NCBI GenBank assembly: GCA_037141055.1
Contig: JBAXDH010000004.1
Location: forward strand, 2,443 to 66,442
DNA length: 64,000 nt
Source of the DNA: a bacterium
GTDB lineage: Bacteria; Bacteroidota; Bacteroidia; Bacteroidales; FEN-979
Reading direction: 5' to 3'
Position numbers and translations under genes: made by a program. The notes under the pieces were generated by a model. That model made no database searches. It had not been told where the DNA came from and saw only the letters and a list, made by a program, of their open reading frames with translations. The number at the start of each line of letters is the position of its first letter. Positions within the stretch are counted from its first letter, which is position 1. Below are positions 14,873 to 32,707 of the stretch, in pieces.

Positions 14873-15412
14873 ATGATTGATAAACAACAATTTGAAAATT
14901 TCTATCAATATTTTACCAGGGAAGAAATTGTTGAGATCATCGAAATATTTCCTGAGCAGCAGCCGGAAATTATCAATGCCCTTGCTTTGAACATTGAAAA
15001 TCACGATCTTGTAAAGGTCAAATTAAATGCTCATAAACTGAAAGGTCCCATGCTGCAGTTTTATGATCCCGTTGCATCGAAACATGCGCAGGTAATGGAA
15101 GACGCTGCGTTGCGTAAAATTATTGAAATCGTTGACTCCTTTATCGGCGAATATCCTGAACCCGTTCGCGCGAAACGCCTGGAATTTGACGACTATGATC
15201 TGTTCCGGAAACAAATTGTCCCTGCTCAAACGCTGAAGGCATATCTAACCGGGCTTACAGGTTCGTTATCACCGGAAGCGGAGATGAGACTCAGGGAACT
15301 TGAAATCATGAAGATGGCCGACGGCATGCACAAAATGCTCGCGGATCTGAAATATTCCTCGTCACTCCTGGCGGAGGAACTGAAACAGATGAAGCTGGAT
15401 CTTACGGCCTGA
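14873..15412 (+). CDS. Hpt (histidine phosphotransfer) domain protein
   Basis: LNAHKLKGPMLQF matches the Hpt AHxLKG motif in a helical context. The ATG at 14873 (MIDKQQF) is preferred over the listed start at 14801. Confidence 0.6.
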   Translation: MIDKQQFENFYQYFTREEIVEIIEIFPEQQPEIINALALNIENHDLVKVKLNAHKLKGPMLQFYDPVASKHAQVMEDAALRKIIEIVDSFIGEYPEPVRAKRLEFDDYDLFRKQIVPAQTLKAYLTGLTGSLSPEAEMRLRELEIMKMADGMHKMLADLKYSSSLLAEELKQMKLDLTA

Positions 15413-16696: not shown

Positions 16697-16879
16697 ACTA
16701 TTGAATTAAATGGTGAAAATACACAATATTTTCTGAACTTTGTTTTGAACGCATCTATTCAGTTATTTTTGTTCATGTCCGTATTGCTTTATAATGGCCA
16801 CCGAATTATTTCCCCCGGGGTATTAATTATTCAAATAAACTGATTAAATTGCAGGTATATTGAATTAAAATCAATTCCA

Positions 16880-17773: not shown

Positions 17774-17780
17774 GAAATCT

Positions 17781-18788
17781 CTAATCAAGCCCCAGGACAC
17801 CTGATGACCTGCCAAGAATGTTGTTTTTATAAAGCTTCTGATAGATCAGGAATCCGATAAATGGATTTACAAACGGCGCCAGTTTCAGAACCACTTTAAG
17901 ACGTGTTGTAACAGAAGGATCTGCCCTGACAAACTCTTCAACAGCAGCATACCTGGAATTGATATCTGTTTTTACTTCAGGCAAATTCTTTATGGCTTTC
18001 CGGTTAAGATAAATGAAAAGCAGAATCCACTGTGCATATTTTCTGGAAGCCAGGGAATGTAAACCGGTCAGCCCTTTTTCTTTAAAAAAACGGATCCGCT
18101 CCTCCATTGCATCGGTATAATGAAGTTTCTTCAGGTTGAAGCCGCTGCGAATGATGCTGTCGGGAGATTGGTAGTAGTAATAGTACTTTTTGTCAAATAC
18201 AACTATCTTGCCTGATAAATAGAACAGTTTGTATGTGGTAAACTCATCTTCGTGAATTTTTGCTTTCGGGAACCGGATTGAATCAAACAAATGTTTTCGG
18301 TACAGTTTATCCCAGGCAACAACATAATCGACATTGTATCGGGTGTAAATCAATTCTAACGCTTCCAGGTTATTGATGACCTTTTCGTTGTCGGCACCAG
18401 GATCAATAAATGTATCCTCCGTCACAGCCCTGTAACTGCATTGGGCGATGTCGGCGTCATGTTTTTGTATTCGGTCATAAAGGTCCCGGAACATATCCGG
18501 GTGAATAAAATCATCGCTGTCAACAAAACCGATGTAATCTCCTGTGGCGATGTCAATCCCTGCATTCCTGGCATCGGACAACCCTCCGTTGGATTGGTGA
18601 ATCACCTTTACCCGATGATCAATGCTTGCATACTCGTCACTGATAAGTCCCGAATTATCCGGGGAACCATCGTCAACCAGGATGATCTCGAGGTTTTGGT
18701 AGGTTTGATTTATGATCGAATCAACACACCGGTTCAGGTATTTTTCAACCTTGTAGATTGGTACGATGACGCTAATCTTATTTTCCAT
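17781..18788 (-). CDS. Glycosyltransferase family 2
   Basis: ISVIVPIYKVEKYLNRCVDSIINQTYQNLEIILVDDGSPDNSG and DSDD motifs. Confidence 0.9.
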   Translation of the reverse strand: MENKISVIVPIYKVEKYLNRCVDSIINQTYQNLEIILVDDGSPDNSGLISDEYASIDHRVKVIHQSNGGLSDARNAGIDIATGDYIGFVDSDDFIHPDMFRDLYDRIQKHDADIAQCSYRAVTEDTFIDPGADNEKVINNLEALELIYTRYNVDYVVAWDKLYRKHLFDSIRFPKAKIHEDEFTTYKLFYLSGKIVVFDKKYYYYYQSPDSIIRSGFNLKKLHYTDAMEERIRFFKEKGLTGLHSLASRKYAQWILLFIYLNRKAIKNLPEVKTDINSRYAAVEEFVRADPSVTTRLKVVLKLAPFVNPFIGFLIYQKLYKNNILGRSSGVLGLD

Positions 18789-18800
18789 GAATTTTAGTGT

Positions 18801-20330
18801 TTAAATCCTGAACTTTTTGAAAGCAGAGGTGATCAAATTCTGAAAAACGGCACGCTCACTCCTGTTCAGGGTAATTAAAGTATTAATGATAAATGATAAA
18901 AATGCACATAAAATGAATGATATCAAAAAGGTTGTCCAGGATGCCGGGTTTATGGTCAGTTTAATCATGTAGGCGATGACGGCGACAGCCGCAAAAGCAA
19001 TCACTCCTTTAAAAATGGAATAGTAAAAAGTAGTCCACTTCTCGTTCAGGATCCGCGCTGCATAGATAGGGGTGAAAGTTGTGTGCTTTATGATACCGGT
19101 TATCAGGCTTACCAGGGGTATGGCGATGATTCCAAGCCTGGTGTATTTTACAAGAATAAGCATCAGGGAGATATTAATTACGCCGGTTATAAATAATGCC
19201 AATGCAGGGATTTTCAATTTGTTGGTAACGGTATACACATGAAAGACCGTTTCAATACTGGTGGTGACAATTAATGGTGCAATAATGAGTATAATCATCT
19301 GATGCAACAGATGTGAATTTTGTCCCGGAACCCAGAGATTGAAGAATGTATCTCCAAACACCATTAAAAAACCAAATGGGATACTCAGCAGAATTTGCAT
19401 GAATTTCATAGAACGGTTTAAGCTGGTTCTGAATTCGCTTTTCTTTGACTGTGCATAAAGAATCATCAGTTCGGGAACGAAAACACCAACAAGCACCGCG
19501 ATAAAAGATTGAAAAAACATAGGCACTGTTTTGGCAATGGCAAACTCGCCTGAAGCCGCAGCCCCCAGGAACAAATTGGCAACTAAAAGATCCAGTCCCG
19601 ACATCAGTACATTGCTGAGTTGATTCAATGAGTTCCAGACACCCGACGATATAAGTTCTTTGATAGCAGAGAAACTGAAATATTTCCTATGGATGGCTAG
19701 TTCCGGCAGTAACATCCGTGTATACTTCATGTTCATCACAATGAGAAATATCGCCACAACCAGGTTGGCAAAACCAATGTAGGTAATCGAAGGTTTGAAG
19801 AAATAAAACAAGACAACCAGCAGGACAGCACGAATGATATTGGATTCGGCATTTCGCATGGAAGAGAGCTCCAGTCGGTTCCGGGCGAATGTAGCCACAC
19901 CATAAACAGATGCAAAAATACTGATCAGAGATGCTGCGAATATCAATCCGAAAAGTACCTGAACTTCAGCCAAAACTGCCGGGGGTATATTAAGAAGGTG
20001 GTTAACAAAAATGACGAAAAAGATGGAAGGAATAGTCAGCAACACAGCAATTACGGTGTTACCCATTAACACCGAATTGAAATAAACATTGGCGCCTTTG
20101 ACATCGTTCTGTTGAATTTTGAAAGTAATATACCGGCTGGCCATTGAATTCAACGCGATTGTGATGATGTTGGCATAACCGATAATGCTGTTGGCCAAAG
20201 GAAAAAAGCTATATGCTTCCTTTCCTACCGTTCTGATAAGGTAAGGCGTAAGGAAGAAATTTATTCCCAACTGAATGGCAAAAGCGGTCACATTGGCTGC
20301 CAGGTTGATTGCAAGTTGCTTTTTCGCCAT
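18801..20330 (-). CDS. Polysaccharide flippase (Wzx / MOP superfamily)
   Basis: 509 aa and highly hydrophobic, with about 12-14 TM helices. Sits in a glycan locus. Confidence 0.8.
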   Translation of the reverse strand: MAKKQLAINLAANVTAFAIQLGINFFLTPYLIRTVGKEAYSFFPLANSIIGYANIITIALNSMASRYITFKIQQNDVKGANVYFNSVLMGNTVIAVLLTIPSIFFVIFVNHLLNIPPAVLAEVQVLFGLIFAASLISIFASVYGVATFARNRLELSSMRNAESNIIRAVLLVVLFYFFKPSITYIGFANLVVAIFLIVMNMKYTRMLLPELAIHRKYFSFSAIKELISSGVWNSLNQLSNVLMSGLDLLVANLFLGAAASGEFAIAKTVPMFFQSFIAVLVGVFVPELMILYAQSKKSEFRTSLNRSMKFMQILLSIPFGFLMVFGDTFFNLWVPGQNSHLLHQMIILIIAPLIVTTSIETVFHVYTVTNKLKIPALALFITGVINISLMLILVKYTRLGIIAIPLVSLITGIIKHTTFTPIYAARILNEKWTTFYYSIFKGVIAFAAVAVIAYMIKLTINPASWTTFLISFILCAFLSFIINTLITLNRSERAVFQNLITSAFKKFRI

Positions 20331-20355
20331 CTTGGTTAGAGGGTGTATTTATCCA

Positions 20356-20976
20356 TTATTGGTTTACTTTTACCCAGGTTGAGGTTAGTTCATCATACTT
20401 TTTGATAATCCTGGCCGGATTACCAACGGCAATTGAAAATGGGGGTATATCTTTTGTCACAACTGAACCGGCCCCGATCTGACAACGTTTGCCAATCCTG
20501 ACGCCAGCCACAATAACTGAATTGGCTCCGATATGAGATTCGTCTCCTATGATGGTCTGCCTAAGATCAAGTGGCTGACCGCTCGAATTTTTACTGCCGT
20601 CACCATATCCGTGATTAAATCCGGAAATGAAAACATGCTGTCCCAGGCCCGAACCATTTCCCAAGGCAACAGGACCGATGATGACAGAACCAATCCCGAT
20701 GCGTACCTCGTTGCCTATCAGTACATCTCCTGCACCGTTATTGATGGTGCAAAAATCTTCAATGGTCGTATATTCTCCCACATCAAAACGATGCCATGGA
20801 AAAACATCGATTCGCGAATGAGCCCTGATTAATGAACCTTTTCCTTTTTTATGAAAAAAACGATTGAGCAATACCCGTACCCACCATCTTGGGCGTGGGT
20901 TTCGCCTGGGTGTCATTATCCAGAGAATGAATTCTTTTAACTGCGGATTCGATTTGATCCTTTCTTTTAGCTGCAT
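20356..20976 (-). CDS. Hexapeptide-repeat O-acetyltransferase
   Basis: Left-handed beta-helix repeats (IGNEVRIGIGSVIIGPVALGNGSGLG, IGANSVIVAGVRIGKRCQIGAGSVV). Confidence 0.8.
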   Translation of the reverse strand: MQLKERIKSNPQLKEFILWIMTPRRNPRPRWWVRVLLNRFFHKKGKGSLIRAHSRIDVFPWHRFDVGEYTTIEDFCTINNGAGDVLIGNEVRIGIGSVIIGPVALGNGSGLGQHVFISGFNHGYGDGSKNSSGQPLDLRQTIIGDESHIGANSVIVAGVRIGKRCQIGAGSVVTKDIPPFSIAVGNPARIIKKYDELTSTWVKVNQ

Positions 20977-20983
20977 AACTGAT

Positions 20984-21814
20984 TTATTTTTTCTTGAAAA
21001 AATAGAGCTTAAACCACTTCAGCTGCTTTGGAATCCTTGACAACATAGCCACCAGGAGCGATCCGCTCTGATCAACCGAGCGGGTAATTGTCCAGGCTCT
21101 TGCCTTTATCCCTGTTATGCGTTTAAGCTTGCCCAGGTTCGAAATTGCAAATGCCATCTTTCCGTCTTCCATCCGGGAGTCACTTTTTATGAAACCGATC
21201 TTTAAAGCTTCTTCACGCGGGAAACAAAAATTAACGCCCCCAACTGCCAGTTCCGGACGGTTAATGGTGCGTAAAGCGTGAACCATGTCCCGAAAGAATT
21301 CATAAAAGGCATACTTTAAACGCGATTCGCTTTTTTTGGTGATAAACGAATAAGTACCATACGTTGCAAATCCTTTACCTGATAGAATCGGATTTAACAT
21401 GGCATCAATCCAGGCTGATGGATAAATAGTATCCGCATCACCGGTGATAATATATTTGCCGTGCGAATTTTCCATCGCAGCCTGTCGTGCAAAACCATAA
21501 CCCTGTTTTGATTCAAAAACGGGTGTAATTCCACATTTCCTGATAATCTCTGAGGTTTTGTCCTTTGAGTTATTGTCAACAAAGATAAACTCAACCGGGT
21601 ACAAGCTCCTGATGGCACTGAGTGATGATAAATTCCGAAGGATGTTCGATTCCTCGTTCCATGCAATGATATTTACCGAAATCAAAGGTTTATCATTTTG
21701 CTGGGCTGCAAAACCAGCCCTGATACGATCGAAAACTTCCAGTGGAATTTCTTCCATCTTCTGATATTCGAAAGTATGAATTTTGACGTTCGCAGGTACA
21801 AATGGCCGAAACAT
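20984..21814 (-). CDS. Glycosyltransferase family 2
   Basis: ISVNIIAWNEE, FVDNNSKDKT and GDADT motifs. Confidence 0.75.
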   Translation of the reverse strand: MFRPFVPANVKIHTFEYQKMEEIPLEVFDRIRAGFAAQQNDKPLISVNIIAWNEESNILRNLSSLSAIRSLYPVEFIFVDNNSKDKTSEIIRKCGITPVFESKQGYGFARQAAMENSHGKYIITGDADTIYPSAWIDAMLNPILSGKGFATYGTYSFITKKSESRLKYAFYEFFRDMVHALRTINRPELAVGGVNFCFPREEALKIGFIKSDSRMEDGKMAFAISNLGKLKRITGIKARAWTITRSVDQSGSLLVAMLSRIPKQLKWFKLYFFKKK

Positions 21815-21850
21815 AGGAATTGTTTTAAACGTTTAGTCCTGATTCTGTTT

Positions 21851-23044
21851 TCATCTATTTTGGCTGATAAAGGCATAAACCGCTGAAGAGAATTGGTCGG
21901 CCCTTGATTTCCAGGAATTGGACTTTGCAAATCCAATCCTCATTTTTATTTTTTCTGAATTATCAGTTTCAAGTACCTCCGTTAACAAGTTCCTGAATTC
22001 TTCCTTGGAAGATGCAAAAGAAACATGTTCCATGAACTCCGGCAGATCAGCAAACCGGGTTATTACAACAGGTACGCCTACTGCCAGGTATTCATTTATT
22101 TTCAGAGGATATACATTTTTATTTATTTCGTTACAGAGGTAAGGGATGATGCCTGCATCACAGTTTTTTAATCGTTCAGGCACCTCCATTGGTTTTATCG
22201 GGGGAAGGAACGTTACGTTTTTAAATTGCTCCAGTACGGTTTTCACTTTATCATTCCTGACATCCCCGATAAATTCGAAGTCATAACCCGGTAAATTCCG
22301 AACAGAAAATTCAACTGTTTCAAGGTCAAAGCGTTGGTCAATACTCCCGATATAGCCGATTTTTCGCCGTTTTTCTCCCGGATGAACCTCATTTTTTGCT
22401 TCGCGGCTGAACATCTCAAAATCGACTCCGTTTTTCACAGTTACAACCTTTTGATTAAACTGCAACTTCTGGTTTTTTAAAAAATCAGAAGTAACAATGA
22501 CACCACCGGCTGTTTCAGCGAATTTCCGGTCGGCATGCCATGCGTGGATTCCGCGTTTGCCGGTGGAGAAACCGTCGTAACAATAATAAACAGTGATTTT
22601 TTCCTTGAGTTTTCCTGATAATTCTTCTCCGAAAATCGGGTTATAGGCATTGATAACGATGGGATTTGAGAATCCTAACTTACGGATTGCTCTCATTAAG
22701 GACCATTTGTATAAAAGGGAATCTATCTTTAAGATGAACTGATACAACCGCTCATTTTTAATTATATTCAACGGGATCATCGGTGGAAGAACCCAGTTGT
22801 ATACAACGGCTCCTTCTGCAGTCTTTTTGACAATCGCCTTCCTTTTCAGCCCAAGTATCCGCCAAACGGGGGCTTGTTGCTTTCCCAGCAAAGAAGTGAA
22901 AACATCCTTTATCGTGAAAGGATATTCCACATAGAGAACCCTGTTTTTTAAAGCCAGGAGTGACATAAGTTGCACAACTGATTTCGTATAGGGGCCTTCC
23001 CAGGTTGAATAAGAAACACAAATAATATTTTCTTTTTCAAGCAT
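21851..23044 (-). CDS. Glycosyltransferase family 1/4-like
   Basis: GT-B C-terminal region (PLKINEYLAVGVPVVITRFADLPEF). The ATG at 23044 (MLEKENIICV) is preferred because the listed start overlaps the upstream gene. Confidence 0.7.
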   Translation of the reverse strand: MLEKENIICVSYSTWEGPYTKSVVQLMSLLALKNRVLYVEYPFTIKDVFTSLLGKQQAPVWRILGLKRKAIVKKTAEGAVVYNWVLPPMIPLNIIKNERLYQFILKIDSLLYKWSLMRAIRKLGFSNPIVINAYNPIFGEELSGKLKEKITVYYCYDGFSTGKRGIHAWHADRKFAETAGGVIVTSDFLKNQKLQFNQKVVTVKNGVDFEMFSREAKNEVHPGEKRRKIGYIGSIDQRFDLETVEFSVRNLPGYDFEFIGDVRNDKVKTVLEQFKNVTFLPPIKPMEVPERLKNCDAGIIPYLCNEINKNVYPLKINEYLAVGVPVVITRFADLPEFMEHVSFASSKEEFRNLLTEVLETDNSEKIKMRIGFAKSNSWKSRADQFSSAVYAFISQNR

Positions 23045-23049
23045 AAGGC

Positions 23050-24189
23050 TTATTTTGGTGATAATGAGTTGTAGAGGTTTAAAACCTGGCGGGCCATATT
23101 CTCCCACGAAAAAAAGGAGGAGCGTTTCAATCCCTTACGGCTATAATCCTCGTACATTTCCCTGCTAGTAAGTAACTGCCTGATTGCGTCGGTTATTTGT
23201 TGCGGTTGAAACGGGTCAATCACAAAAGCCGCATCTCCGGCTATTTCAGGCATGGAGGAGGTGTTGGAAGTTATGACCGGTATGCCGCAGGCCATTCCCT
23301 CCAGGATGGGGATCCCAAAACTCTCCCGCAGGGATGGATATAAAAATAACTTACTTAAATTGATGATCCCGGGCAGATCTGTATTTACAATATACCCGGT
23401 GAGGTGTATGTGATCCCTGATTTCCGGGCAACCAAGATCTTTCACCAATGAGGAAAGTGCATCCTCAGGATAATCAGGCATAACTAATTTAAAATCTTCA
23501 CCTGACGAGGTTCTGAACCTCGCAAACGACTGAATCACCCCGCCGGTATTTTTCTTGGGATCAGTATTCCCCAGGAAAAAGAAGAACCGGTCAGGCAGCA
23601 TGTATTTTTCTTTTATCCTGTTCAACTCCGAGGGATCACTGATGGGCCTGAAATGTTGACTCACCCCGTTATAGACCGTCTTCAACCGGTCAGTTTCCAA
23701 CCCGAAAAACCGGCATATCCTGTCACGTTCAAAATCAGAAACGGTGATGACCATCCTGCTTTTTCTTACCACCGGCGGCACGACCCAGCGCCGGTAAACA
23801 TTTCCCAGTTTCTGGTACCAGCTTCCTGCCTTTCCGAAAAGCATCAGCTTTTCAAGGTAAATAATATCATGAAGCGTTATCATGAGTGGTACCGTGGAAA
23901 AGACCGGAGCTGTATTGCTGGTGCAGTGCAGCAGGTCGCAGTGGTGTTTTTTTGCGGCCCGGGGGAGCAGAACCTGTTCCCAGAAAGGGTAAAAGCCTCC
24001 TTTGAGCTTTACAATATGGAAATTGTCGGTTTCATGGATGACGTTGCAGTCGGTGTCAGGTTTTACAAAGATGAAATATTCATTTTCTGTATCTATTCTT
24101 TGCAGGTTTCTTATCAATTCCAGTGCCACCATGTCCATCCCATGTTTTTTAGGACGGAAAATCCGTTGTGCTTCAATACCGATTCTCAT
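23050..24189 (-). CDS. Glycosyltransferase family 4 (GT-B)
   Basis: ESFGIPILEGMACGIPVITSNTSSMPEIAGDAA (EX7E region). Confidence 0.85.
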   Translation of the reverse strand: MRIGIEAQRIFRPKKHGMDMVALELIRNLQRIDTENEYFIFVKPDTDCNVIHETDNFHIVKLKGGFYPFWEQVLLPRAAKKHHCDLLHCTSNTAPVFSTVPLMITLHDIIYLEKLMLFGKAGSWYQKLGNVYRRWVVPPVVRKSRMVITVSDFERDRICRFFGLETDRLKTVYNGVSQHFRPISDPSELNRIKEKYMLPDRFFFFLGNTDPKKNTGGVIQSFARFRTSSGEDFKLVMPDYPEDALSSLVKDLGCPEIRDHIHLTGYIVNTDLPGIINLSKLFLYPSLRESFGIPILEGMACGIPVITSNTSSMPEIAGDAAFVIDPFQPQQITDAIRQLLTSREMYEDYSRKGLKRSSFFSWENMARQVLNLYNSLSPK

Positions 24190-24251
24190 GGAAATAAGTT
24201 CTTTACCCGGTTTATGTATGATGAAATATAGCCAAAAGATGACATGGTTTG

Positions 24252-25457
24252 CTATTTATTAGTTGTTCCGTGTGTTGTATGAATGAAGTTTTTATCAGCT
24301 CCCTTGAGTTTAAAAAGCAGGCTGAACATAGTAATGAAAGCACCTGGAAGTTCCTTTAATGCCAGTAAAGTGTTCATATTGTAGTATTTTCGTGGAACCG
24401 ATATGAGGAGGGCAACAATGGTGAGGGACCAAAGAATCATCCATGCCGACAACGGAATGGACAGCCACGTGTCCAGTGGAGGAATTACCAGGCGTAAGGC
24501 ATCGATCAGTAAAAGTGCCGTTATACTTCCTAAATGAATGACCCTGGGGGGCAGGATCATCTGGATCAGTTTGTCAAAAAGATCGATGTTCCCTTTGAAA
24601 ACCAGTTGTTTTAACCCGATGCCAAAATAATTCGTAAAAGATACCAGCTGGGCTGACAGCCAGCGTTTGCGCTGCTTGGCAAAGATCTCAACTTCCTGCA
24701 CTTTTTCGTCAAAAACCAGGGCATGATGAAGGTACTCTATTTTAATGCCATTCATGAAAAGCTTGACCTCCAGTTCTTTGTCTTCGCCGTGAGCTGTGAC
24801 CTCCAGCATGATCTCTTTATAAAGACCATATTTTAATGCCATTCCTGAGCCAATTAACGCGGATGAAAGGCCTAAAACACGATGCCCTTTTCTGAATATA
24901 TGGTTGTTGATTTCTTCACTTATAGCATCCAGAATGGCAAAACGGGTATTGATATTTTTAGCCACCCTGTGCCCCTGGACAACCTGATGACCCTGTTCAA
25001 ATGCCTCGTTGATCCGTTCGAGGAAATCGGGTGCCATAAAATTATCTGCATCAAGAACCACCGCGATCTCATAACCAGGGCTTATCAGGGACATTGCATT
25101 GTTGAGGGCTTTGGCCTTGGAACTTTTTTCAAACGATACCTCTATGACCTGTACATTCATGCTCCTGAGGTCCTTAATAGTCTCCGGCCGGAAAGAATCC
25201 GCGATGATGAAGACGTCAAACAGGTTGGCAGGATACGTTTGTTTCAGTGATTCCCGTGCAGTTTCAACAATAACATTATCTTCCTTATATCCGGGAATCA
25301 ACACGGCAATTCTTCGGCGTACAGTTACCGTTAACAACTTTGGCCGGTACCTGAAGCCTCCCGCCAACCCGAAAATGAACAGGTAGCATGTAGTAAACCC
25401 CAAATAAATGAATATCAAATATTCTATAGCCTGAAAAATGTAATTTAGAAATAACAT
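24252..25457 (-). CDS. Membrane glycosyltransferase family 2
   Basis: N-terminal TM helix, IAVLIPGYKEDNV and LDADN motifs, and C-terminal TM helices. Confidence 0.8.
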   Translation of the reverse strand: MLFLNYIFQAIEYLIFIYLGFTTCYLFIFGLAGGFRYRPKLLTVTVRRRIAVLIPGYKEDNVIVETARESLKQTYPANLFDVFIIADSFRPETIKDLRSMNVQVIEVSFEKSSKAKALNNAMSLISPGYEIAVVLDADNFMAPDFLERINEAFEQGHQVVQGHRVAKNINTRFAILDAISEEINNHIFRKGHRVLGLSSALIGSGMALKYGLYKEIMLEVTAHGEDKELEVKLFMNGIKIEYLHHALVFDEKVQEVEIFAKQRKRWLSAQLVSFTNYFGIGLKQLVFKGNIDLFDKLIQMILPPRVIHLGSITALLLIDALRLVIPPLDTWLSIPLSAWMILWSLTIVALLISVPRKYYNMNTLLALKELPGAFITMFSLLFKLKGADKNFIHTTHGTTNK

Positions 25458-25470
25458 ATTTGTGCAATTG

Positions 25471-26385
25471 TTAAATTAAGTTATCCCTGCAACTGTTTTT
25501 AAAGTTCCATAAGATGCCTTTCAGATAAGCTTTCAGGTGTTCCTGCTGATGCTTCACCAAAAGGAGAACGGTGTTTTTCGGAAAGGATATGAATGTCTGG
25601 AAAAAAAGGCTGAAAAGAAAAGGCAAACCGCGAAAGTTCCTCCTTGCGAACAATAAACGGTTCCGGGTCAGGTAGTAAGTGATCAGCGGACTGTTCTTTC
25701 CGGTCGATATTGATTCCTTGTGCAGGATAAAACTGGCTGGCTGATAGTAAATTTTATAACCTGCCCGCTTGATCATTTCGGCCCAGTCGTGTTCTTCATA
25801 GTAAAGGAAAAAGATTTCAGGCATAAGCCCAACCTCGTCGATCACGCGGCGCGGGATCATCATTGCTGCACCATGAACTGAATTGGTAGAGGTAAGTTGG
25901 TCGAATTCAGGACTGTCAGGTTGCCTGTAACCAACTGCCTTGTTCCGAATTGTCCAGGGGTTCATGCGTGTAAAACCCGCGTATTGAACTAAGCCGGGCT
26001 CCTGAAAGTATTTTATCTTAGGACTTACCGCACCTATCTCCGGTCGGTTTTCAAGCAGTTCAACCATTGGTTCCATGATGTGTGCAGGAACTTCGGTATC
26101 ATTGTTCAGGAAAAATAGATATTTGCCTTTTGCAACACGGATCCCCAGGTTATTTCCCCCTGCAAAACCAAGGTTTTCCTTGCTTTTAATCAGGATGATC
26201 CCGGGGTAAAGTTCTTTAATCCTGTCGGGTGTGTCATTGGGCGAAGCGTTGTCAACAACAATGATCTCCATGTTCGGATAGCTGATCTTTTGTAATGACT
26301 GCAAAAGTTCACAGGTAACGGATGACTGGTTATAATTTACCGTGATGACGGATATCAACGGGTATTTGTCTTCTTCAGTTTTCAT
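25471..26385 (-). CDS. Glycosyltransferase family 2
   Basis: ISVITVNYNQ, VVDNASPNDT, NLGFAGGNNLG and LNNDT motifs. The ATG at 26385 (MKTEEDKYPL) is preferred. It overlaps the upstream gene end by 11 nt. Confidence 0.85.
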   Translation of the reverse strand: MKTEEDKYPLISVITVNYNQSSVTCELLQSLQKISYPNMEIIVVDNASPNDTPDRIKELYPGIILIKSKENLGFAGGNNLGIRVAKGKYLFFLNNDTEVPAHIMEPMVELLENRPEIGAVSPKIKYFQEPGLVQYAGFTRMNPWTIRNKAVGYRQPDSPEFDQLTSTNSVHGAAMMIPRRVIDEVGLMPEIFFLYYEEHDWAEMIKRAGYKIYYQPASFILHKESISTGKNSPLITYYLTRNRLLFARRNFRGLPFLFSLFFQTFISFPKNTVLLLVKHQQEHLKAYLKGILWNFKNSCRDNLI

Positions 26386-27862
26386 GAGCAACACCATTGA
26401 TAAGAAGTTTGTTTTCAAGCTCAAGTGTTTCCTCCCGGTCAAATTTAGGGGCAAGGTACATAAATGCCATGCAGCTGTATAGTAATACACCAACAGGCAT
26501 CTGACCGAGCACAGGATTTCCATAAGACGCTGCCATTACTCCAAACATGCCTGCTGTCATTGCAATGGTTTCTGTTTTTACAGTATTACTCTTTATTTTA
26601 AACATCACAATATACGATATCTTCCCCAGGATATAAAACAGGATACATAAATGCAGGATCAAACCGACCATTCCCCCTTCCATCCAGATCATAACATACC
26701 AGGAGTCGGTTGGCACTGTTGAAAGAAAAGAGCCAGGATTGTATTTTTGCCCCAGAGTTCCTGTAGCGCCCAGACCTCCTCCAAAGGGACGGGTTGACAG
26801 GTATCCCTTGATCCGTTGCTGGTTGATCAGCCGGGTTTGCAGGGAGGCATCTTCGGGGTTGAAGGCAGTTCGCATTCTGCGGATGGTACCGTTACCCTGA
26901 CCAATAAAAGTGTAGTTAAAGAAAACGAAAACCACTAAAAGAACAGATGCTCCAATGAGCAATATTTTACTGTTTTTACGCAGGATAATGTAAAGGATCA
27001 AACCGGCAAACGGAACCGCTATAGCTCCCCTGGTTCCGGAAATCATCATCCCAAAGATGCCGAGGAGGGCCACTACCGCATAAAATTTGCTCCTCCAGAA
27101 GCTCTTTTCTCCCATTGCGAGGATGCCAAATACAACACCTGCAGTCCCCTGGGCCGCCCCGAACTGGCCGGCATCGGAAAAGAATGAAAACACCCTGAGT
27201 TCACCAAACAGTAAATGCTGGGCTGCCCCTCCCTCATCCAGCCATCGTTGTTCAAAAGGATCGACACCGATGTACTTTTGTTGAATACCCTTCAGGGTTC
27301 CCAGCACTGAAAAAATACCCCAGAGCAGAAAAAAAAAGCGAAGGTCGGACCGTTTGTTGAAAATGATAAAAATAAGGGGAATTGTGAGTATCATATAAAG
27401 GGATATTCCACGCACCGCATAAAACCAGGCCACCCTGCTCCCTGCTTCCGGGTTGACAAGTTCCATAAGGCAATATCCAAGCCAGATAAGGGCAATCAGG
27501 GTCATTTCATTTGCTGCATTACCCCATTCAACCTTCCGGTGAAAAGTTCGAAAAAAAAGACTCAGATAAGTTAAAACTAAAAGTATGTCGACTGTCAGAC
27601 CCCATGGGACTACATTGATATAACGGTAAATCCCCAATGCAAAAAAATTAAGGGTGTAAACCGCGATTAAACCATTCCGGGGGTTATGAAAAATAACAGA
27701 TACAAAAAAAACAGCCAATGGAATAACCATAAACATCATTCCTGCTATTATTCCCCCGTCAGCAATTATCAGCGCAATAAAAAAAGAGCATATCAGCATA
27801 AAACCGATAACCTCTGGTTTTTTCAGTCTTTCTGCTCCTCTTTTAAGCTCGATTTCGTTCAT
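26375..27862 (-). CDS. O-antigen polymerase/ligase family membrane protein (Wzy-like)
   Basis: 495 aa with about 10-12 TM helices and one larger loop. The call rests on locus context, with no sharp motif. Confidence 0.6.
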   Translation of the reverse strand: MNEIELKRGAERLKKPEVIGFMLICSFFIALIIADGGIIAGMMFMVIPLAVFFVSVIFHNPRNGLIAVYTLNFFALGIYRYINVVPWGLTVDILLVLTYLSLFFRTFHRKVEWGNAANEMTLIALIWLGYCLMELVNPEAGSRVAWFYAVRGISLYMILTIPLIFIIFNKRSDLRFFFLLWGIFSVLGTLKGIQQKYIGVDPFEQRWLDEGGAAQHLLFGELRVFSFFSDAGQFGAAQGTAGVVFGILAMGEKSFWRSKFYAVVALLGIFGMMISGTRGAIAVPFAGLILYIILRKNSKILLIGASVLLVVFVFFNYTFIGQGNGTIRRMRTAFNPEDASLQTRLINQQRIKGYLSTRPFGGGLGATGTLGQKYNPGSFLSTVPTDSWYVMIWMEGGMVGLILHLCILFYILGKISYIVMFKIKSNTVKTETIAMTAGMFGVMAASYGNPVLGQMPVGVLLYSCMAFMYLAPKFDREETLELENKLLINGVAHEN

Positions 27863-27895: not shown

Positions 27896-30115
27896 TCAGC
27901 TGAGACGTTTGTCATTGAACTGGTTCGTCAATAGTTGCTTTATCTTTAAGCGAATCCACGACCTTTTTTTAGGCAATTCTCCAACGAGCGATTCCATCTC
28001 TTCGAGTGCAACGCCATTGAGCAATATACGGGGTTTCACCGGATCCGTCACTGCCAGTACTTCAGCCAATATATTGGCATCTGCTTTTGACCATGACCGG
28101 TTGGCTCTGCAAACCAAAAAGCAATTATTTGCACTTTTAAAAAGATTTACCGGAAATGATGAATGCAAAACACCCGGAAATTCGACGAAAATAAATGAGT
28201 AGTTATCCCAATCCGGCACTAAATCGGGGGTTTCAAGATTCCGGAAAGAGGAAATCCGGTAAAAATCCCTGGAAACGACATATTGTGCGATATCAAAATC
28301 TGTTTTGTCCATCTGGGGTGCCTCATGGGGACAGAGTAACAGTACTTTATGTCCGATACTGCTTAATTGTGCTGCAATTCGTTGCAAAAGGAAACTTTTT
28401 CCTTCGTTCTCAAGCGTGCTGAAAGCAATACAACTGACGGGACCTTTTTCTTTTTGAATGGTAATTGAATGCAGGATCAGCTTTCGTATTATGGCATCTA
28501 TGCTTTTCTTTTCAATATAGTCGACATCTATCTTTTTCTTTCTTTTTTTACTGATGACAGGGAAAATGCTTTCGACCACCAGACCTGTTTCACTGGTTGC
28601 TTTAGCCGCATTTCGAAGGGACGAATCCATCAGGTCAAGTGCAAGGATTGAAAGCAGGGTTATCAACAACCCGACCAAAGCAGCGGCAATAATCAGCATT
28701 TTACGTTTATCGGGTTGCGGATGGGTTGGATAGTTCGGAGGATCAAGGATGGTGTTGGCTGATGATACTTCAACGCTCTGTTGTTTTAGTTTTGCCAGTC
28801 CTAAATTTTTCACGAGCGACATGTATTCATCTTCGGCAATATTGATCTTCCGCTCCAGCCTTCGCATCATTGCCCCCATGGGTGCATACTGGGAATAGAT
28901 CACATTGAATTCCTCACGAAGGTTATTCATGGTAATGACCTGGGCATTCGTTCCCTCAAATTCAATGGTCGCTGAAAGCCAGTCGGAGACGACTGTTTTT
29001 TCAGGTACATTTGTTACTCCTCTGGTCTGCTGATACAGGGAGTCCACAACGGCTTTCATCCGTGATTTTAATTCAGATGATTTTTGGGTGAGGGACTTGT
29101 ACGTCGCTGATTCCACCGGGTTTTTTTCTCCTGCATCTGCGATCGGTTGAATGGCTGCAATGCGCTCATTTACTTTTGACAGCTCAACCCTGAGGCTTAA
29201 TAATTCCGAGCTGGTCAGCCTCCGCTTGATTTCCGGGGTCAATTTTTTTTCCAACAGGTCAATAACAGCTTTCGATGCAGAATTTTTCTTGAGCACCTCC
29301 TGGTATCCCATCTCGAATTGCTCCTTACGTCCTGCAATAAATGTACTTTGTTCATTATAGTTGATTATTTTATTGACCTTGTTGAATTCAAGAAGTTCAT
29401 CCTCGGCAACCTTCAACCGTTCGACAGACTTATTGACCTCACTTTCAAAATATTCCACTGCATTTTCTGACTGGCCGGCTTTCTGAACTTTGTAGGCCTG
29501 TTTATATGCCTTTACGAGATATACCAGGGTTTGCTGACATATCCCCGCGTCGTCCGATTCATAGGAAAGTTCGATGTTATCGCTGTTTTGTAAACGCTTT
29601 ACACTGAGTTTTCCCAGGATGGTAGCCGGATTATAATAGCTGTTCTTTACACGGATCAGGTTGGAAACAAAGTTGTTATTCGAGGACTCCATATATTGTC
29701 GCAGACCGGCAAGTGTCTTTTCAAAGTCACCCTGAACTATTAGCTTTTTTACATCCGCAGGAACATTCTTCATGATTTCATCATAATGGTTCTGCTGTAT
29801 AATTCCCGGATCGGCCTTTTTAAGTATCAGGTGACTCGCAAACAGCGAAAGTCCTGTCGTTTCAAGTGTTGTATTCGATTTGATGATGCCCATCAGGTTA
29901 TCGAACTGGGTGGTGACTGTATTAAAAGTAAATCCCGTCAAATCAACGGAATTGCCAGTGGCGAGGCTGGTAAAGACAGTAGTCTGCGATTTGTATGTTA
30001 GTGGTTCATTCCTGGTAAAAATAAATACCGTAACGGCCAGGATGAAGGGAACAGACAGAATTAGAAAAATATGCCGCAGAAGAAGCCGGACAAAAAACAC
30101 TAGGGAGAACTTCAT
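27896..30115 (-). CDS. Polysaccharide co-polymerase, Wzc/GumC-like, with a degenerate C-terminal P-loop domain
   Basis: 739 aa. TM helix, long coiled-coil periplasmic region, second TM helix (MLIIAAALVGLLITLLSILAL), then a domain with ENEGKSF (Walker A-like). FVEFPG replaces the usual IIDTPP, and there is no Tyr-rich tail. Confidence 0.7.
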   Translation of the reverse strand: MKFSLVFFVRLLLRHIFLILSVPFILAVTVFIFTRNEPLTYKSQTTVFTSLATGNSVDLTGFTFNTVTTQFDNLMGIIKSNTTLETTGLSLFASHLILKKADPGIIQQNHYDEIMKNVPADVKKLIVQGDFEKTLAGLRQYMESSNNNFVSNLIRVKNSYYNPATILGKLSVKRLQNSDNIELSYESDDAGICQQTLVYLVKAYKQAYKVQKAGQSENAVEYFESEVNKSVERLKVAEDELLEFNKVNKIINYNEQSTFIAGRKEQFEMGYQEVLKKNSASKAVIDLLEKKLTPEIKRRLTSSELLSLRVELSKVNERIAAIQPIADAGEKNPVESATYKSLTQKSSELKSRMKAVVDSLYQQTRGVTNVPEKTVVSDWLSATIEFEGTNAQVITMNNLREEFNVIYSQYAPMGAMMRRLERKINIAEDEYMSLVKNLGLAKLKQQSVEVSSANTILDPPNYPTHPQPDKRKMLIIAAALVGLLITLLSILALDLMDSSLRNAAKATSETGLVVESIFPVISKKRKKKIDVDYIEKKSIDAIIRKLILHSITIQKEKGPVSCIAFSTLENEGKSFLLQRIAAQLSSIGHKVLLLCPHEAPQMDKTDFDIAQYVVSRDFYRISSFRNLETPDLVPDWDNYSFIFVEFPGVLHSSFPVNLFKSANNCFLVCRANRSWSKADANILAEVLAVTDPVKPRILLNGVALEEMESLVGELPKKRSWIRLKIKQLLTNQFNDKRLS

Positions 30116-30142: not shown

Positions 30143-30964
30143 TTACCTGATTCGAAAACCAATTATTTCTTCGAGTAACCACAAGGCTTTTTGAAAATCA
30201 TACCGGGCTTTGCTCAAATCAATCTTCGCCATCGAATAGGATATCCTCAATGAGGAGGTCTCAGAAACAGAAATCTGGTTGCTCATAAAATCCTTTTCTG
30301 CATTTTCCATGATGATGGTCTGATCATCAAAATTTTCAAATAGAATTTTATAGCTCTCATAGCTATTCATCAGGTTGTTATAGCGATTATAAACTTCTTC
30401 CCTGAGTTGTTTTATCAGCAGTTGTTTATTGCTTTGAGTTTGTTCTTGTTCAATTTTCGCCACCTTATAATCATAATGGTCGAAAAATGAGATGACGGGA
30501 ATTTTAAGGGTCAGACCGAATGAATACCGGGCCTGGGCACTGGCGGAGCTGGTCGGCTGAACGGGGGATACGGTACTGTTGTTTATGTCATAAAACTGCC
30601 CATAAGAGAAGATGCCCCCTGCATTAATGATATCTTTGGTCCATTCACTTCTTGCATGTTTTATATCCAGGTTGCTCTTCTGAAGACTTAAATTCTGTAC
30701 CTTGATTATAGGAGCATGTGTAATGGCAGAATCGATAAGTGTTTCAATGGATGGAATCCGTAATAAAAAACTATCTGCTTCAAGAACAGACGGCAAAACG
30801 GTGGGGATGGAATCAGGCAGGTTTGATTGTGCCATGGATTGAATGGAGAGAAAAAGAAAAACCAGGCATGAAAACAGGCAAGGGTGAAATCTTTCAGGCG
30901 ATTTTATCCCCTGCAAGCGCATTTTCAATTTATATTGTTTAGAAAGAAAATTCGTAGTTTTCAT
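30143..30964 (-). CDS. Exported protein resembling a single TolC/OEP repeat
   Basis: 273 aa. Signal peptide (VFLFLSIQSMAQS), then a helix / beta-hairpin / helix pattern. It ends YDFQKALWLLEEIIG, as in the outer-membrane efflux protein family, but is about half the normal length. Confidence 0.4.
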   Translation of the reverse strand: MKTTNFLSKQYKLKMRLQGIKSPERFHPCLFSCLVFLFLSIQSMAQSNLPDSIPTVLPSVLEADSFLLRIPSIETLIDSAITHAPIIKVQNLSLQKSNLDIKHARSEWTKDIINAGGIFSYGQFYDINNSTVSPVQPTSSASAQARYSFGLTLKIPVISFFDHYDYKVAKIEQEQTQSNKQLLIKQLREEVYNRYNNLMNSYESYKILFENFDDQTIIMENAEKDFMSNQISVSETSSLRISYSMAKIDLSKARYDFQKALWLLEEIIGFRIR

Positions 30965-30983: not shown

Positions 30984-32225
30984 TTAAACCGGGTCTTTCT
31001 GGAAAAGTGCAGGAAAGGTCCTAAGTATCAGTTTCAGGTCATACCAGAATGAGTAGTTGTTTCTGGCAAAATGGTCGGCATATTCATTATCATAGCGATG
31101 CCGCTCGCTTTCGGACATGATGCCACCTTTGCCACGCAATTCAACCTGCCACAGGCCGGTGATACCAGCGGGCGCAAGAAACCGCTTTGCAATCTCATCG
31201 TTGGTCAGTTTTTTTCCCTCATAAACTGGCAGTGGCCGGTTCCCGACAATCGACATATCCCCCTTGATGACATTGATCAGTTGCGGGAGTTCGTCGATAC
31301 TTGTATTTCTGATAAACTTCCCGACTCTGGTCACCCTGGGGTCATTGGAGATTTTAATGAAAGTCGGTTTTGACTTATCGATTTTTGCTTTCTGTGCTGT
31401 GTACCAATTATCACAGATCTCATGGGAACCGATGTAACGAAGTTCCGAACAGGTTGTTCCGTCTGTTCTTTTGGCACATTCAGGGCAGGGCTCGCTGAAA
31501 TCAATTTCAGAAATGGTTGCAGCGGATGCATATTGATTTTTATCTTTGGCAAGGTTGCTGAGTTGCTTGTCCGATCCGACCCTCATCGACCGCAACTTGT
31601 AGAACAGAAATGGGTCCAATCCTGTGCCCATCCGTTCAGAGGTATAATAGATTTTACCTTTTCCTTTCGACTCGATGAAGATTGCGGCGGCAACAGCCAG
31701 CAACAGGGGAGAGAGGCATATCAGCGCCAGCGATGCAACCACGATGTCAAATAGTTTTTTAACCAGGGGCATGTGATATTCTCCGACCACTATCCCTATT
31801 TTCCTGTAATTGATCAGGTCATGAATGCGCGTCACGATGCCGTCAATATCAGTAAGCGGTAATATGTAGAAATCGTCTATTGCCTGTTTGTAGGCTCTTT
31901 TTTCCTGGTTCCACGCCCGTTTATAGACAGATTCCTGGAATTCATTGCATAATAAAATGAATGAAACATATTTGAATTTCTGATCTCCTCTGACAAGGTC
32001 GTTTCGCAGGAGGTCATGCATTCCAAAGCCATCACCCCCGGCCAGGTTCAATTCGCAAAGAATTGCATTCGGTTTATTTCCTGCCCTGAGGTAGGCGGTT
32101 GCGGCCATCGCATCAATCTTATGGGTGAGCGATATCCCGGGATGGGCGTTCAATGCATTAATTTCATCCGCAGAATTGCCAATATAAAGTATCGATATTT
32201 GTCCCATGGTTAACAAATTATTCAT
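30984..32225 (-). CDS. Bacterial sugar transferase (priming phosphoglycosyl transferase) with an N-terminal pseudo-receiver domain
   Basis: The C-terminal PGT core is present (DPRVTRVGKFIRNTSIDELPQLINVIKGDMSIVGNRPLP, GITGLWQV). The N-terminal ~130 aa have a REC-like pattern but lack the acidic pocket, Thr and Lys. The ATG at 32225 is preferred. Confidence 0.8.
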   Translation of the reverse strand: MNNLLTMGQISILYIGNSADEINALNAHPGISLTHKIDAMAATAYLRAGNKPNAILCELNLAGGDGFGMHDLLRNDLVRGDQKFKYVSFILLCNEFQESVYKRAWNQEKRAYKQAIDDFYILPLTDIDGIVTRIHDLINYRKIGIVVGEYHMPLVKKLFDIVVASLALICLSPLLLAVAAAIFIESKGKGKIYYTSERMGTGLDPFLFYKLRSMRVGSDKQLSNLAKDKNQYASAATISEIDFSEPCPECAKRTDGTTCSELRYIGSHEICDNWYTAQKAKIDKSKPTFIKISNDPRVTRVGKFIRNTSIDELPQLINVIKGDMSIVGNRPLPVYEGKKLTNDEIAKRFLAPAGITGLWQVELRGKGGIMSESERHRYDNEYADHFARNNYSFWYDLKLILRTFPALFQKDPV

Positions 32226-32236
32226 AAAACCATTGC

Positions 32237-32632
32237 TTACCACTTGATTGCATAGTGAATCGGGTCAAGATTTTTCTTCACCAGCTCAGTGAGTTCGACC
32301 GGGCTGAAGGGTTTCGTCAGATAATCCTGTGCACCTGCCTGGTAGCATCTTACGCGGTCTTCACTTTTTTCACTGGCGCCAGACAGCATGATTACAGGAG
32401 TGTGTTTGGTAAAACCCCTTTTCCGAAGCATCGTAAGAAAGTCATAGCCGTCCATGTTTGGCATTTGAATGTCGGAAATGATCAGGTCGGGGAGGTTTTC
32501 CTCGAGCCATTCGAGCGCTTCCTTTCCGTCCTTTTTGGCCACAACATCATAATTTTTTGATAGAAATTTTTCCAGCAGCAAACGCATGGTTTGCTCATCG
32601 TCGATAATCAGAATCTTGTGTCTCATATACAA
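32237..32632 (-). CDS. Single-domain response regulator (CheY-like receiver)
   Basis: ILIIDDE, LIISDIQMPNMDG, VIMLSG and YLTKPF: all canonical receiver residues are present and there is no output domain. Confidence 0.9.
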   Translation of the reverse strand: MYMRHKILIIDDEQTMRLLLEKFLSKNYDVVAKKDGKEALEWLEENLPDLIISDIQMPNMDGYDFLTMLRKRGFTKHTPVIMLSGASEKSEDRVRCYQAGAQDYLTKPFSPVELTELVKKNLDPIHYAIKW

Positions 32633-32699: not shown

Positions 32700-32707
32700 C
32701 AAAGATA
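32700..32707 (-). promoter_or_regulatory. -7 box (TAtcTTTG on the minus strand) for the receiver / polysaccharide operon
   Basis: The reverse complement of caaagata. A second candidate, TAttTTTG, lies about 20 nt further upstream. Confidence 0.45.

Follow-up and report, generated by a model that had tools for sequence, protein, structure and literature searches.

A free receiver protein and the initiating enzyme of a polysaccharide pathway are encoded as neighbours in this Bacteroidota genome, and the enzyme itself carries, at its N-terminus, a second receiver domain in which every key residue has been replaced. Judging from profile scores and tree position, this second domain is a paralogue of the free receiver, whose gene lies immediately upstream, and has diverged from it; the module that the two genes form is widespread and uncharacterised in Bacteroidota. 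Through this pairing, to judge from the sequences, phosphorylation would probably serve as a signal that switches the first step in making the polymer. Little is understood of how bacteria apportion scarce undecaprenyl phosphate between glycan pathways that compete for it and, to our knowledge, Myxococcus provides the only case in which the control of a phosphoglycosyl transferase (PGT) by a response regulator has been elucidated. The source genome encodes four PGTs with a Bac_transf domain, and these would compete for one lipid carrier. We refer to the whole stretch of DNA analysed, 64,000 nucleotides, as the window.

The transferase, its fused domain and the partner receiver

The features of the two-gene pair are the following.

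30984..32225 (-): PGT gene, a 413-aa monotopic phosphoglycosyl transferase, the initiating enzyme, read from the ATG at 32225
31290..31295 (-): catalytic dyad Asp317-Glu318 in SIDELPQL, invariant in 120/120 homologues and matched in the alignments with WbaP and PglC
31668..31766 (-): predicted re-entrant membrane helix, residues 160-192 (modelled as a helix over 154-186), a segment spanned by the WbaP and PglC chain alignments
31785..32198 (-): pseudo-receiver domain, residues 16-153 (419-aa numbering), from AlphaFold2, Foldseek and column counts
32237..32626 (-): partner receiver, a 129-aa single-domain response regulator (Pfam Response_reg, 114.5 bits)
32700..32707 (-): TATCTTTG, a match to the -7 promoter element TAnnTTTG, read from the sequence

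The product of the gene at 30984-32243 (-) is identified by its profile match and dyad as a monotopic phosphoglycosyl transferase. The listed open reading frame starts at a GTG at 32243 (30984..32243 (-), 419 aa); ATG codons at 32225 (413 aa, matching database cluster P0001) and at 32207 are the alternatives, and the family alignment favours a start near the one at 32207. Bac_transf (PF02397) covers residues 162-414 with 174 bits against a cut-off of 27 and, since 253 residues align to 178 profile positions, the core has a large insertion. The profile score, the invariant dyad and the Ser-Pro membrane helix make the core active-looking, in line with the normal PGT core that the sequence-only reading had described. 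The helix includes conserved K162/K163 (K-R in the family consensus), F165-D166 and, after the basic patch, an S178-P179 break that is kept in 118-119 of 120 homologues. The structures of WbaP from S. enterica and PglC from Campylobacter align with the core (E = 2e-31 and 6e-21, respectively), and all three enzymes have the Asp-Glu dyad and the re-entrant helix in common. Compared with WbaP and PglC, the PGT has a different N-terminus and, in place of their GPRP-type motif, the GNRPLP of this PGT clade; in addition, a Cys4 insert of 55 aa lies between its KxRSM and DPR motifs. No named PGT subfamily applies, because the protein scores under the cut-offs of all the NCBIfam equivalog and subfamily models.

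Structure prediction of the N-terminal region, combined with Foldseek, gave a receiver fold. AlphaFold2 folds residues 10-147 (413-aa numbering) as (beta-alpha)5, that is five strand-helix pairs, with a block-mean pLDDT of 90-95 over residues 11-70 of the domain and of 71-87 beyond. Against solved receiver domains, Foldseek returned target-normalised TM-scores of 0.7-0.8 and rmsd values of 2.6-3.8 A, the matches including the receivers of PhoP, PmrA, PhoB, VicR and Spo0A. Residue columns agree with these two methods in supporting the original claim of a receiver fold with every key residue replaced: Gly22/Asn23 occupy the place of the acidic pair, Glu64 that of the phospho-Asp, Cys99 that of the Thr/Ser and Leu128 that of the Lys, Pro129 being retained, and the domain has private insertions at residues 85-89 and 111-117. 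The fused receiver cannot be phosphorylated, since the acceptor Asp is a Glu and both the metal-binding acidic pair and the Lys are absent. The domain boundaries expected from profile searches were recovered for Bac_transf (162-414) but not for the receiver, as no PF00072 match was found in the PGT itself at E <= 0.1 and residues 1-160 are without any Pfam match; about half of its 120 closest homologues have a precomputed PF00072 match. We also considered that the domain could be a degenerate version of the WbaP-type DUF/Rossmann domain. This reading was rejected, because receiver HMMs give the N-domains scores of up to 91 bits and the Foldseek matches listed are receiver domains or proteins that contain one, except for a whole-chain WbaP at rank 1.

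The loss of the catalytic residues is a family trait, the full set being present in 0/171 fused N-domains versus 46/56 partner receivers. With a mean column entropy of 1.46 versus 0.60, the N-domain evolves, by this measure, much faster than the catalytic domain. Its most conserved elements are beta1, beta3, the beta4-alpha4 loop and beta5, a contrast too weak for an interface to be assigned from it. Aspartate-less receivers are familiar from the plant pseudo-response regulators, which have Glu at the acceptor site. Here, Glu occupies that site in 98/118 close homologues and in 17/53 diverse ones, and the N-domain of one lineage (L096-L098) retains Ser, Lys-Pro-Phe and one acidic residue, which suggests that Asp gave way to Glu early and under selection, rather than by random decay. 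Both observations would suit a fused Glu domain that acts as a permanently on-like (phosphomimetic) regulator, activating or dimerising the PGT, with the free receiver competing with it or titrating it and thus serving as an inhibitor. However, many other lineages have Asp, Gln, Asn, Ala or Tyr in the acceptor column, the divergence of the domain is much faster than that of the catalytic domain, and Glu substitutions are no reliable mimic of phosphorylation in receivers. We regard this phosphomimetic scheme as distinctly improbable.

The gene upstream had been called a canonical receiver, and it is one, with a PF00072 match and the complete catalytic residue set (D9, D10, D52, S82, Y102 and K105-P106). 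Its open reading frame spans 32237..32632 (-), with the likely ATG at 32626 (MRHKILIIDDEQ). The 7-nt overlap with the GTG at 32243 was as described, but the gap between the receiver stop codon and the ATG at 32225 is 11 nt and not 12. The protein scores 169 bits on the HMM of the partner family, the next best of the genome's 73 receiver-domain matches reaching 85 bits; on the sequences compared, the partners make up a receiver family of their own, present in single copy and following the PGT clade. The putative -7 element, a match to the Bacteroidota consensus TAnnTTTG, precedes the receiver ATG by about 74 nt and falls within the 200-nt gap that follows a radical-SAM gene. A scan for sigma-70 promoters and terminators around the receiver/PGT pair returned no more sites than in shuffled sequence.

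Recurrence and ancestry of the pair

The pairing claimed at this locus proved to be tightly and widely co-inherited, the free receiver being encoded directly upstream in 35 of the 37 PGT loci that bear the N-domain. These 37 loci span the Flavobacteriales, Bacteroidales, Cytophagales, Chitinophagales and Sphingobacteriales, and in lineages that differ in the remainder of the locus the two genes often overlap by 3-7 nt or are separated by <60 nt. Moreover, the adjacency repeats in an even sample of the phylum, about 7% of whose genomes have the module. Among the other PGT loci (L042-L080), a receiver-like ORF was seen in 2/39, neither of them upstream of the PGT. The partners retain K105-P106 in 56/56 cases and D52 in 53/56. 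Of the outcome named at the outset as a refutation, a common PGT subfamily that is already characterised, only the first half applies: the fusion and the insert are both common in Bacteroidota, but no characterising paper was found, our literature search returning none on the Bacteroidota receiver/PGT pair or characterising REC-PGT fusions. Such fusions have been noted bioinformatically and given as a domain architecture (O'Toole, Imperiali & Allen, PNAS 2021, as cited in PMC12802240). As in the small monotopic PGT fusions for which that work is cited, the receiver here is N-terminal to a PglC-like core.

Regarding ancestry, for 155/171 N-domains the partner HMM gives a higher score than one made from 67 other receivers of the source genome. 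In a FastTree phylogeny, whose supports are moderate and whose comparison receivers all come from one genome, 21 N-domains form one clade (support 0.90), nested in a clade with 55/56 partners (0.90) that leaves out 66/67 of the other receivers. By these scores and this tree, the fused domain and the partner are each other's closest receiver relatives, and this fits an origin by duplication. A natural fusion of partner, pseudo-receiver and PGT was absent among the best 120 clusters of a 5.8-billion-protein collection; the best 120 matches to a concatenated receiver and PGT query were all PGT-only proteins of about 400 aa.

At four loci (L084, L086, L088 and L091), the gene immediately downstream of the partner encodes a short PGT devoid of the N-domain. 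Strict dependence of the partner on the pseudo-receiver was therefore rejected, the fused domain could not be the sole docking site, and the hypothesis of a contact between receiver and pseudo-receiver, raised by the sequence-only reading, is weakened. Other short PGTs of the same clade have no receiver gene in the flanks examined (L017, L020 and L081-L083). Clade members without the receiver or without the N-domain would also be compatible with two proteins that are co-transcribed and make no contact, the receiver serving as a phosphate sink or as a relay connector to a transcription factor or another target (e.g. the co-polymerase), and the pseudo-receiver as a structural or dimerisation module in the position of the WbaP DUF. 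That position is indicated by a weak phmmer alignment of PGT residues 91-234 to the end of the WbaP DUF and the membrane helix, and sigma-54 activators or LytTR regulators with receiver domains, found near L004, L014 and L019, could provide the transcriptional target. Against a lack of contact stand the immediate adjacency, very common in N-domain loci despite differences in the rest of the locus, the paralogy of the two receiver domains and the fact that the partner is a distinct single-copy family tracking the PGT clade. We consider this no-contact arrangement unlikely, though a serious competitor.

The polysaccharide locus and a proposed switch

The genes downstream of the PGT, and those at the far end of the locus, are as follows.

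30143..30964 (-): half-size TolC/OEP-like outer-membrane protein, 273 aa, the next gene of the operon (Pfam OEP, 69 bits)
27896..30115 (-): Wzc-like polysaccharide co-polymerase, 739 aa (weak Wzz and GNVR Pfam matches, TIGR03007)
15509..27862 (-): rest of the operon, with a Wzy-like polymerase, GT2, GT4 and GT1 glycosyltransferases, a hexapeptide acyltransferase and a Wzx-like flippase
16880-17773 (+): GT8 gene
14873..15412 (+): putative stand-alone Hpt protein, for which a start at M25 gives about 179 aa; contains NAHKLKG
11433..14723 (-): hybrid histidine kinase, 1096 aa, with CHASE4, PAS, HisKA, HATPase_c and two receiver domains (Pfam)

The best explanation for this gene content is a Wzx/Wzy-type exopolysaccharide operon with the receiver and the PGT as its control head. 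The OEP-like gene is directly downstream of the PGT in many loci, and the co-polymerase gene is conserved after it across loci.

The CHASE4 hybrid kinase is a candidate input for the partner receiver, and together with the putative Hpt protein, at the far end of the locus, it would complete a phosphorelay. The putative Hpt protein of the window scores 19.5 bits on Pfam Hpt (PF01627), below the cut-off of 24.6; a 114-aa relative (L124) exceeds that cut-off with 32.8 bits, and the H-x-LKG motif is kept in 8 relatives. The divergent Hpt-kinase pair is conserved in three genomes of the same genus, in two of which the PGT is encoded 17-21 kb from it on the same contig; the arrangement with the kinase and Hpt genes at the opposite end of the locus is conserved in G302 and G311, and two same-genus genomes have the Hpt gene without a close PGT. 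At other loci, hybrid kinases of the HisKA-HATPase-REC-Hpt type are encoded directly upstream of the partner (L010, L021 and L024), as is, at L005, a hybrid kinase in which no Hpt domain was detected, and ORFs of 684-720 aa containing a receiver domain lie upstream at L084, L086 and L091. In a comparison with the kinases encoded beside the partner at other loci, the window kinase ranks only third in its genome, and an 838-aa kinase-Hpt protein on contig C106 outscores it.

We propose that the free receiver would be phosphorylated through a His-Asp-His-Asp relay, for which the CHASE4 hybrid kinase and the Hpt protein are the local candidates. The phosphorylated receiver would then bind the PGT at the pseudo-receiver and/or the catalytic domain, the binding would alter the activity or the oligomeric state of the enzyme, and the commitment of undecaprenyl phosphate to the polymer would be gated at the protein level. 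Taken as a whole, the explanation that a phosphorylated free receiver switches the PGT, and with it the first step of polymer synthesis, is one to which we give about an even chance.

A more specific and more doubtful version, which we put forward tentatively, is a two-receiver switch born of gene duplication. In it, the free receiver would pair with its dead, PGT-fused paralogue through the receiver dimer face and thereby switch the enzyme, the CHASE4 sensor feeding a four-step relay. Atypical regulator pairs such as BldM-WhiI are a precedent for heterodimers of receiver paralogues, and the fused domain would resemble pseudo-receivers in general, which retain the receiver fold as an interaction module after the phosphorylation chemistry has been lost. 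However, the plant pseudo-response regulators and BldM-WhiI are clock or transcription factors, whereas the pseudo-receiver described here is fused to a membrane enzyme.

The closest precedent for the receiver/PGT pair is EpsW/EpsZ of Myxococcus. The PGT EpsZ of M. xanthus is activated post-translationally through direct interaction with EpsW~P (Schwabe et al., mBio 2025, PMC12802240), a finding that lends credibility to a single-domain receiver acting post-translationally on the priming step. In both cases, the enzyme that initiates a Wzx/Wzy exopolysaccharide pathway is a PGT, and it is linked to a single-domain response regulator that can be phosphorylated. The control of EpsZ operates at the protein level, at the undecaprenyl-phosphate commitment step, which is also the step at which we propose control here. 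There are also clear differences. EpsZ belongs to the large PGTs and has a membrane bundle of four helices plus a Rossmann-like DUF, whereas in our enzyme the pseudo-receiver replaces the DUF and there is no bundle; the DUF lacking a dimerising beta-hairpin that marks the EpsZ type has no counterpart here, the domain having a receiver fold instead. Similarly, EpsW is fed by the CheA-type kinase DifE, whereas the Bacteroidota candidates are hybrid kinases with Hpt. Finally, and unlike in EpsW/EpsZ, the Bacteroidota partner is paralogous to the domain fused to its enzyme.

Should the switch prove real, it would add an enzyme-directed output to two-component signalling, and it would offer a handle on biofilm and capsule polymers in environmental and gut Bacteroidota. 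The two-receiver version, if true, would represent a class of two-component output acting on a membrane enzyme and not on DNA and, in this genus, an extracellular CHASE4 sensor relay encoded at both ends of one operon. The module is also a compact test system, consisting of one small soluble protein and one monotopic enzyme, and its natural variants, with or without the dead receiver and with or without the Cys4 insert, are built-in controls.

The Cys4 insert of the catalytic domain

The large insertion in the PGT core carries four cysteines.

31362..31532 (-): insert of ~55 aa, residues 238-294, between the KxRSM and DPR motifs of the PGT
31413-31487 (-): C253-x2-C256-x8-C265-x11-C277, inside the insert

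The existence of a Cys-rich insertion, noticed at the outset, was confirmed (~55 aa), but its spacing is CPEC-x8-C-x11-C and not x12. C253 is kept in 119/120 homologues, and C256, C265 and C277 in 120/120; the family pattern is CxxC-x5-9-C-x11-12-C, which has the knuckle spacing of a Cys4 zinc site, with all four Cys invariant in 22 diverse sequences. The insert alone has no Pfam match at E <= 10 and no sequence match in the PDB, and a Foldseek comparison with PDB folds gave nothing significant (best E-value 3.3), the ClpX zinc-binding domain (2ds7) appearing at E = 6 with a probability of only 0.08.

It is tempting to see in this insert a redox or metal sensor that switches the enzyme, rather than a passive structural zinc site, given that the four Cys are invariant across very diverse lineages and that the insert sits within the catalytic domain, between the KxRSM and DPR motifs. 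Set against a sensor, all four Cys are replaced in the homologous insert of L012, and also of L015, L016, L018, L019 and L029, the insert is wholly absent in other lineages (Chitinophagaceae type), and it occurs both with and without the receiver module (without it in L017, L020 and L083). We rate the sensor as very unlikely. As judged from this distribution, the insert is independent of the N-domain, its Cys having been lost in place in some lineages; the Cys loss, the absence of the insert and its independence from the receiver module fit a dispensable stabilising site. Zinc binding is suggested by the conservation of the four Cys, and the most likely role of the Cys4 insert is that of a structural zinc site, stabilising a mini-domain on the surface of the catalytic domain; it most likely stands outside the signalling switch. 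In the predicted structure, a short helix at the CxxC motif leads into a beta-hairpin and then into a helix.

The operon and its first two genes

At the head of the 17-kb polysaccharide operon lie two minus-strand genes read in the same direction, which encode a stand-alone receiver (the partner) and a monotopic phosphoglycosyl transferase (PGT).

Features at the start of the operon and its 5' flank
27896-30115, minus strand: Wzc-like co-polymerase (weak Wzz and GNVR matches)
30143-30964, minus strand: half-size TolC/OEP-like protein, 273 aa (about half a TolC/OEP subunit), between the PGT and co-polymerase genes
30984-32243 as listed, minus strand: PGT (Bac_transf; Pfam, 174 bits, residues 162-414)
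32237-32626, minus strand: partner receiver, a single-domain response regulator of 129 aa (Pfam Response_reg, 114.5 bits)
32707-32700, minus strand: TAnnTTTG-type element, TATCTTTG, within the 200-nt gap 5' of the receiver gene
32838-33920: HydE/BioB-like radical-SAM gene, standing alone directly 5' of the operon

In the partner, D9/D10 form the acidic pair, D52 is the acceptor and Y102 the switch residue; S82 and K105-P106 are present as well. For the PGT, a start at ATG 32225 or 32207 is more likely than the listed one. Its catalytic part falls within the monotopic PGT superfamily, with an invariant Asp317-Glu318 dyad and a membrane helix containing Ser178-Pro179. The element 5' of the receiver gene fits TAnnTTTG, the consensus of the Bacteroidota -7 promoter element. 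The downstream genes encode the half-size TolC-like protein, the Wzc-like co-polymerase and a Wzy-like polymerase, together with nine glycosyltransferases, one acyltransferase and a Wzx-like flippase. An OEP-like gene is present in 24 of the related loci examined, nearly always directly 3' of the PGT gene, and no Wza-type gene was found among the locus ORFs scanned. The co-polymerase has no recognisable match to a P-loop kinase family and may therefore have an inactive C-terminal domain. The radical-SAM gene has no relation to the operon, and other loci do not keep it beside the receiver.

Fold and kinship of the N-terminal domain

Residues 1-160 of the window's PGT, which include the N-terminal domain (N-domain), have no Pfam match. 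In an AlphaFold2 model that drew on 33 homologues, residues 10-147 form five strand-helix pairs, with block-mean pLDDT of 90-95 over residues 11-70. The first-ranked Foldseek match is to WbaP over the whole chain, and the remaining listed matches are to receiver domains of solved structure or to regulators that contain a receiver; compact alignments of about 135 columns (PhoP, PmrA, PhoB, VicR, Spo0A) reach target-normalised TM scores of 0.7-0.8 at an rmsd of 2.6-3.8 A. The sequence-only reading had described a receiver with its key residues replaced, and this holds: Gly22/Asn23 stand at the acidic pair, Glu64 at the acceptor, Cys99 at the Thr/Ser and Leu128 at the Lys. The complete catalytic residue set is found in none of 171 fused domains, in contrast to 46 of 56 partners; all 56 partners have K105-P106 and 53 have D52. 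Of 118 close homologues, 98 have Glu in the acceptor column of the N-domain, while more distant lineages have Glu, Asp, Gln, Asn, Ala or Tyr there. In one lineage (L096-L098), which belongs to a different class of the phylum, the acceptor is already Glu, yet the domain keeps the Ser, Lys-Pro-Phe and one acidic residue, which suggests an early Asp-to-Glu change.

The partner represents a receiver family of its own, present in single copy, scoring 169 bits on its own HMM while the runner-up among the genome's 73 receiver-domain matches scores 85. This HMM outscores one built from 67 other receivers for 155 of the 171 N-domains. FastTree places the 21 best-preserved N-domains in a single clade (support 0.90) nested in a group with 55 of the 56 partners (support 0.90), with 66 of the 67 other receivers outside; supports are moderate, the branches of the N-domains are long and a single genome supplied all comparison receivers. 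The simplest reading is that the partner gene was duplicated and that a copy then fused to the PGT and decayed. Fold and descent place the N-domain in the receiver superfamily, yet by no functional criterion is it a receiver.

The window's PGT is a divergent family member, its closest relative being 67% identical. It carries two private insertions, WNQEKRA in helix alpha4 (residues 111-117, nt 31893-31913) and RGDQK before strand beta4 (residues 85-89, nt 31977-31991), missing from 114-119 of 120 homologues, and has KG at residues 193-194.

Distribution of the receiver-transferase module

The best 120 database clusters (56-67% identity to the PGT, about 400 aa) are from Bacteroidota, and about half have a precomputed PF00072 match. 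Across 80 loci from species-representative genomes, the N-domain occurs on 37 Bacteroidota PGTs, with a stand-alone receiver directly upstream in 35; among the other PGT loci (L042-L080), a receiver-like ORF occurs in only 2 of 39, and upstream of the PGT in neither. An even sample of 301 Bacteroidota genomes yielded three PGT groups of about 11 genomes each: a long form with a four-cysteine (Cys4) insert in the catalytic domain, a form with the N-domain and no insert, and a short form of 240-270 aa that lacks the N-domain. Receiver, PGT, OEP-like gene and co-polymerase recur as a cassette in many sampled loci. The module is a widespread family and no singularity. One locus (L102, G159:C1:1669200-1677900) has a single partner gene followed by two tandem genes for 388-aa N-domain-bearing PGTs, and a third copy elsewhere in that genome (L103) has no adjoining receiver. 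Clade-wide, V-G-N-R-P-L-P-x-Y-E (window 31221-31244) stands in place of the GPRP-type motif that monotopic PGTs usually have, and may mark the Bacteroidota clade or its substrate.

Pairing with the partner can occur without the dead domain. In four loci (L084, L086, L088, L091) the partner lies 14-57 nt upstream of a short PGT, three of them (L084, L086, L091) having an additional upstream ORF of 684-720 aa with a receiver domain; in L085, L087, L089 and L090 one gene separates the two. In these last four, which form one lineage, the product of that gene is a conserved lipoprotein, about 674 aa long, that has a signal peptide. No receiver gene was found within the fetched flanks of L017, L020 and L081-L083. 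Since partners stand beside PGTs that lack the N-domain, a receiver acting on the PGT must make contact at least partly with the catalytic domain. This agrees with the Myxococcus xanthus pair, where the response regulator EpsW, as modelled, contacts the catalytic domain of the PGT EpsZ as well as its DUF (PMC12802240).

The Cys4 insert follows the pattern CxxC-x5-9-C-x11-12-C, its cysteines being invariant in 22 diverse sequences. Modelled alone, it forms a short helix at CxxC, a beta-hairpin and a helix (core pLDDT about 80-85), with no significant sequence or fold match. Because it occurs both with and without the receiver module, is kept with all cysteines replaced in some lineages (e.g. 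L012), and is missing from Chitinophagaceae-type PGTs, a dispensable structural metal site fits best; the metal is presumably zinc.

Proposed control and its input

Tight adjacency across the phylum, with genes often overlapping or nearly abutting, together with the M. xanthus precedent, where EpsW~P activates EpsZ post-translationally and proximity labelling places it beside EpsZ (PMC12802240), leads us to infer that the phosphorylated partner would bind the PGT and alter its activity. We regard direct control by the receiver as evenly balanced, and the pseudo-receiver as a doubtful candidate for its main docking site. The proposed mode resembles that of EpsW/EpsZ; however, the Bacteroidota PGT has neither the membrane bundle nor the DUF, the kinase type differs, and the system lies outside that pair's family. 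According to PMC12802240, which cites them, O'Toole et al. 2021 had already listed receiver-PGT fusions. Our literature search turned up no paper that deals with the pair in Bacteroidota, the dead chemistry, the partner receiver or the Cys4 insert. The window's genome encodes four Bac_transf PGTs, which makes gated access to a shared lipid carrier a plausible rationale for such control.

The gene directly upstream of the partner encodes a HisKA-HATPase-REC-Hpt hybrid kinase at L010, L021 and L024, and a similar hybrid kinase with no detected Hpt domain at L005. In the window, that position holds the radical-SAM gene and no kinase.

Putative relay components in the window's genome
11433-14723, minus strand: hybrid kinase, 1096 aa (CHASE4, PAS, HisKA, HATPase, two receiver domains), at the operon's far end, directly after the last glycosyltransferase
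14873-15412, plus strand: small Hpt gene, motif NAHKLKG, adjoining the hybrid kinase divergently
Contig C106:6601-8478: hybrid kinase with C-terminal Hpt domain, 838 aa

The window's Hpt protein scores a sub-threshold 19.5 bits, and a 114-aa relative passes the cut-off at 32.8 bits. The Hpt-kinase pair is kept in three same-genus genomes, with the PGT 17-21 kb off on the same contig in two. The CHASE4 kinase and Hpt protein could form a His-Asp-His-Asp relay ending on the partner. This assignment is tentative because the 838-aa protein, the genome's best match to the partner-flanking kinases of other genomes, scores 466 bits against them, versus 370 for the local kinase, making it a candidate alternative cognate kinase by sequence.
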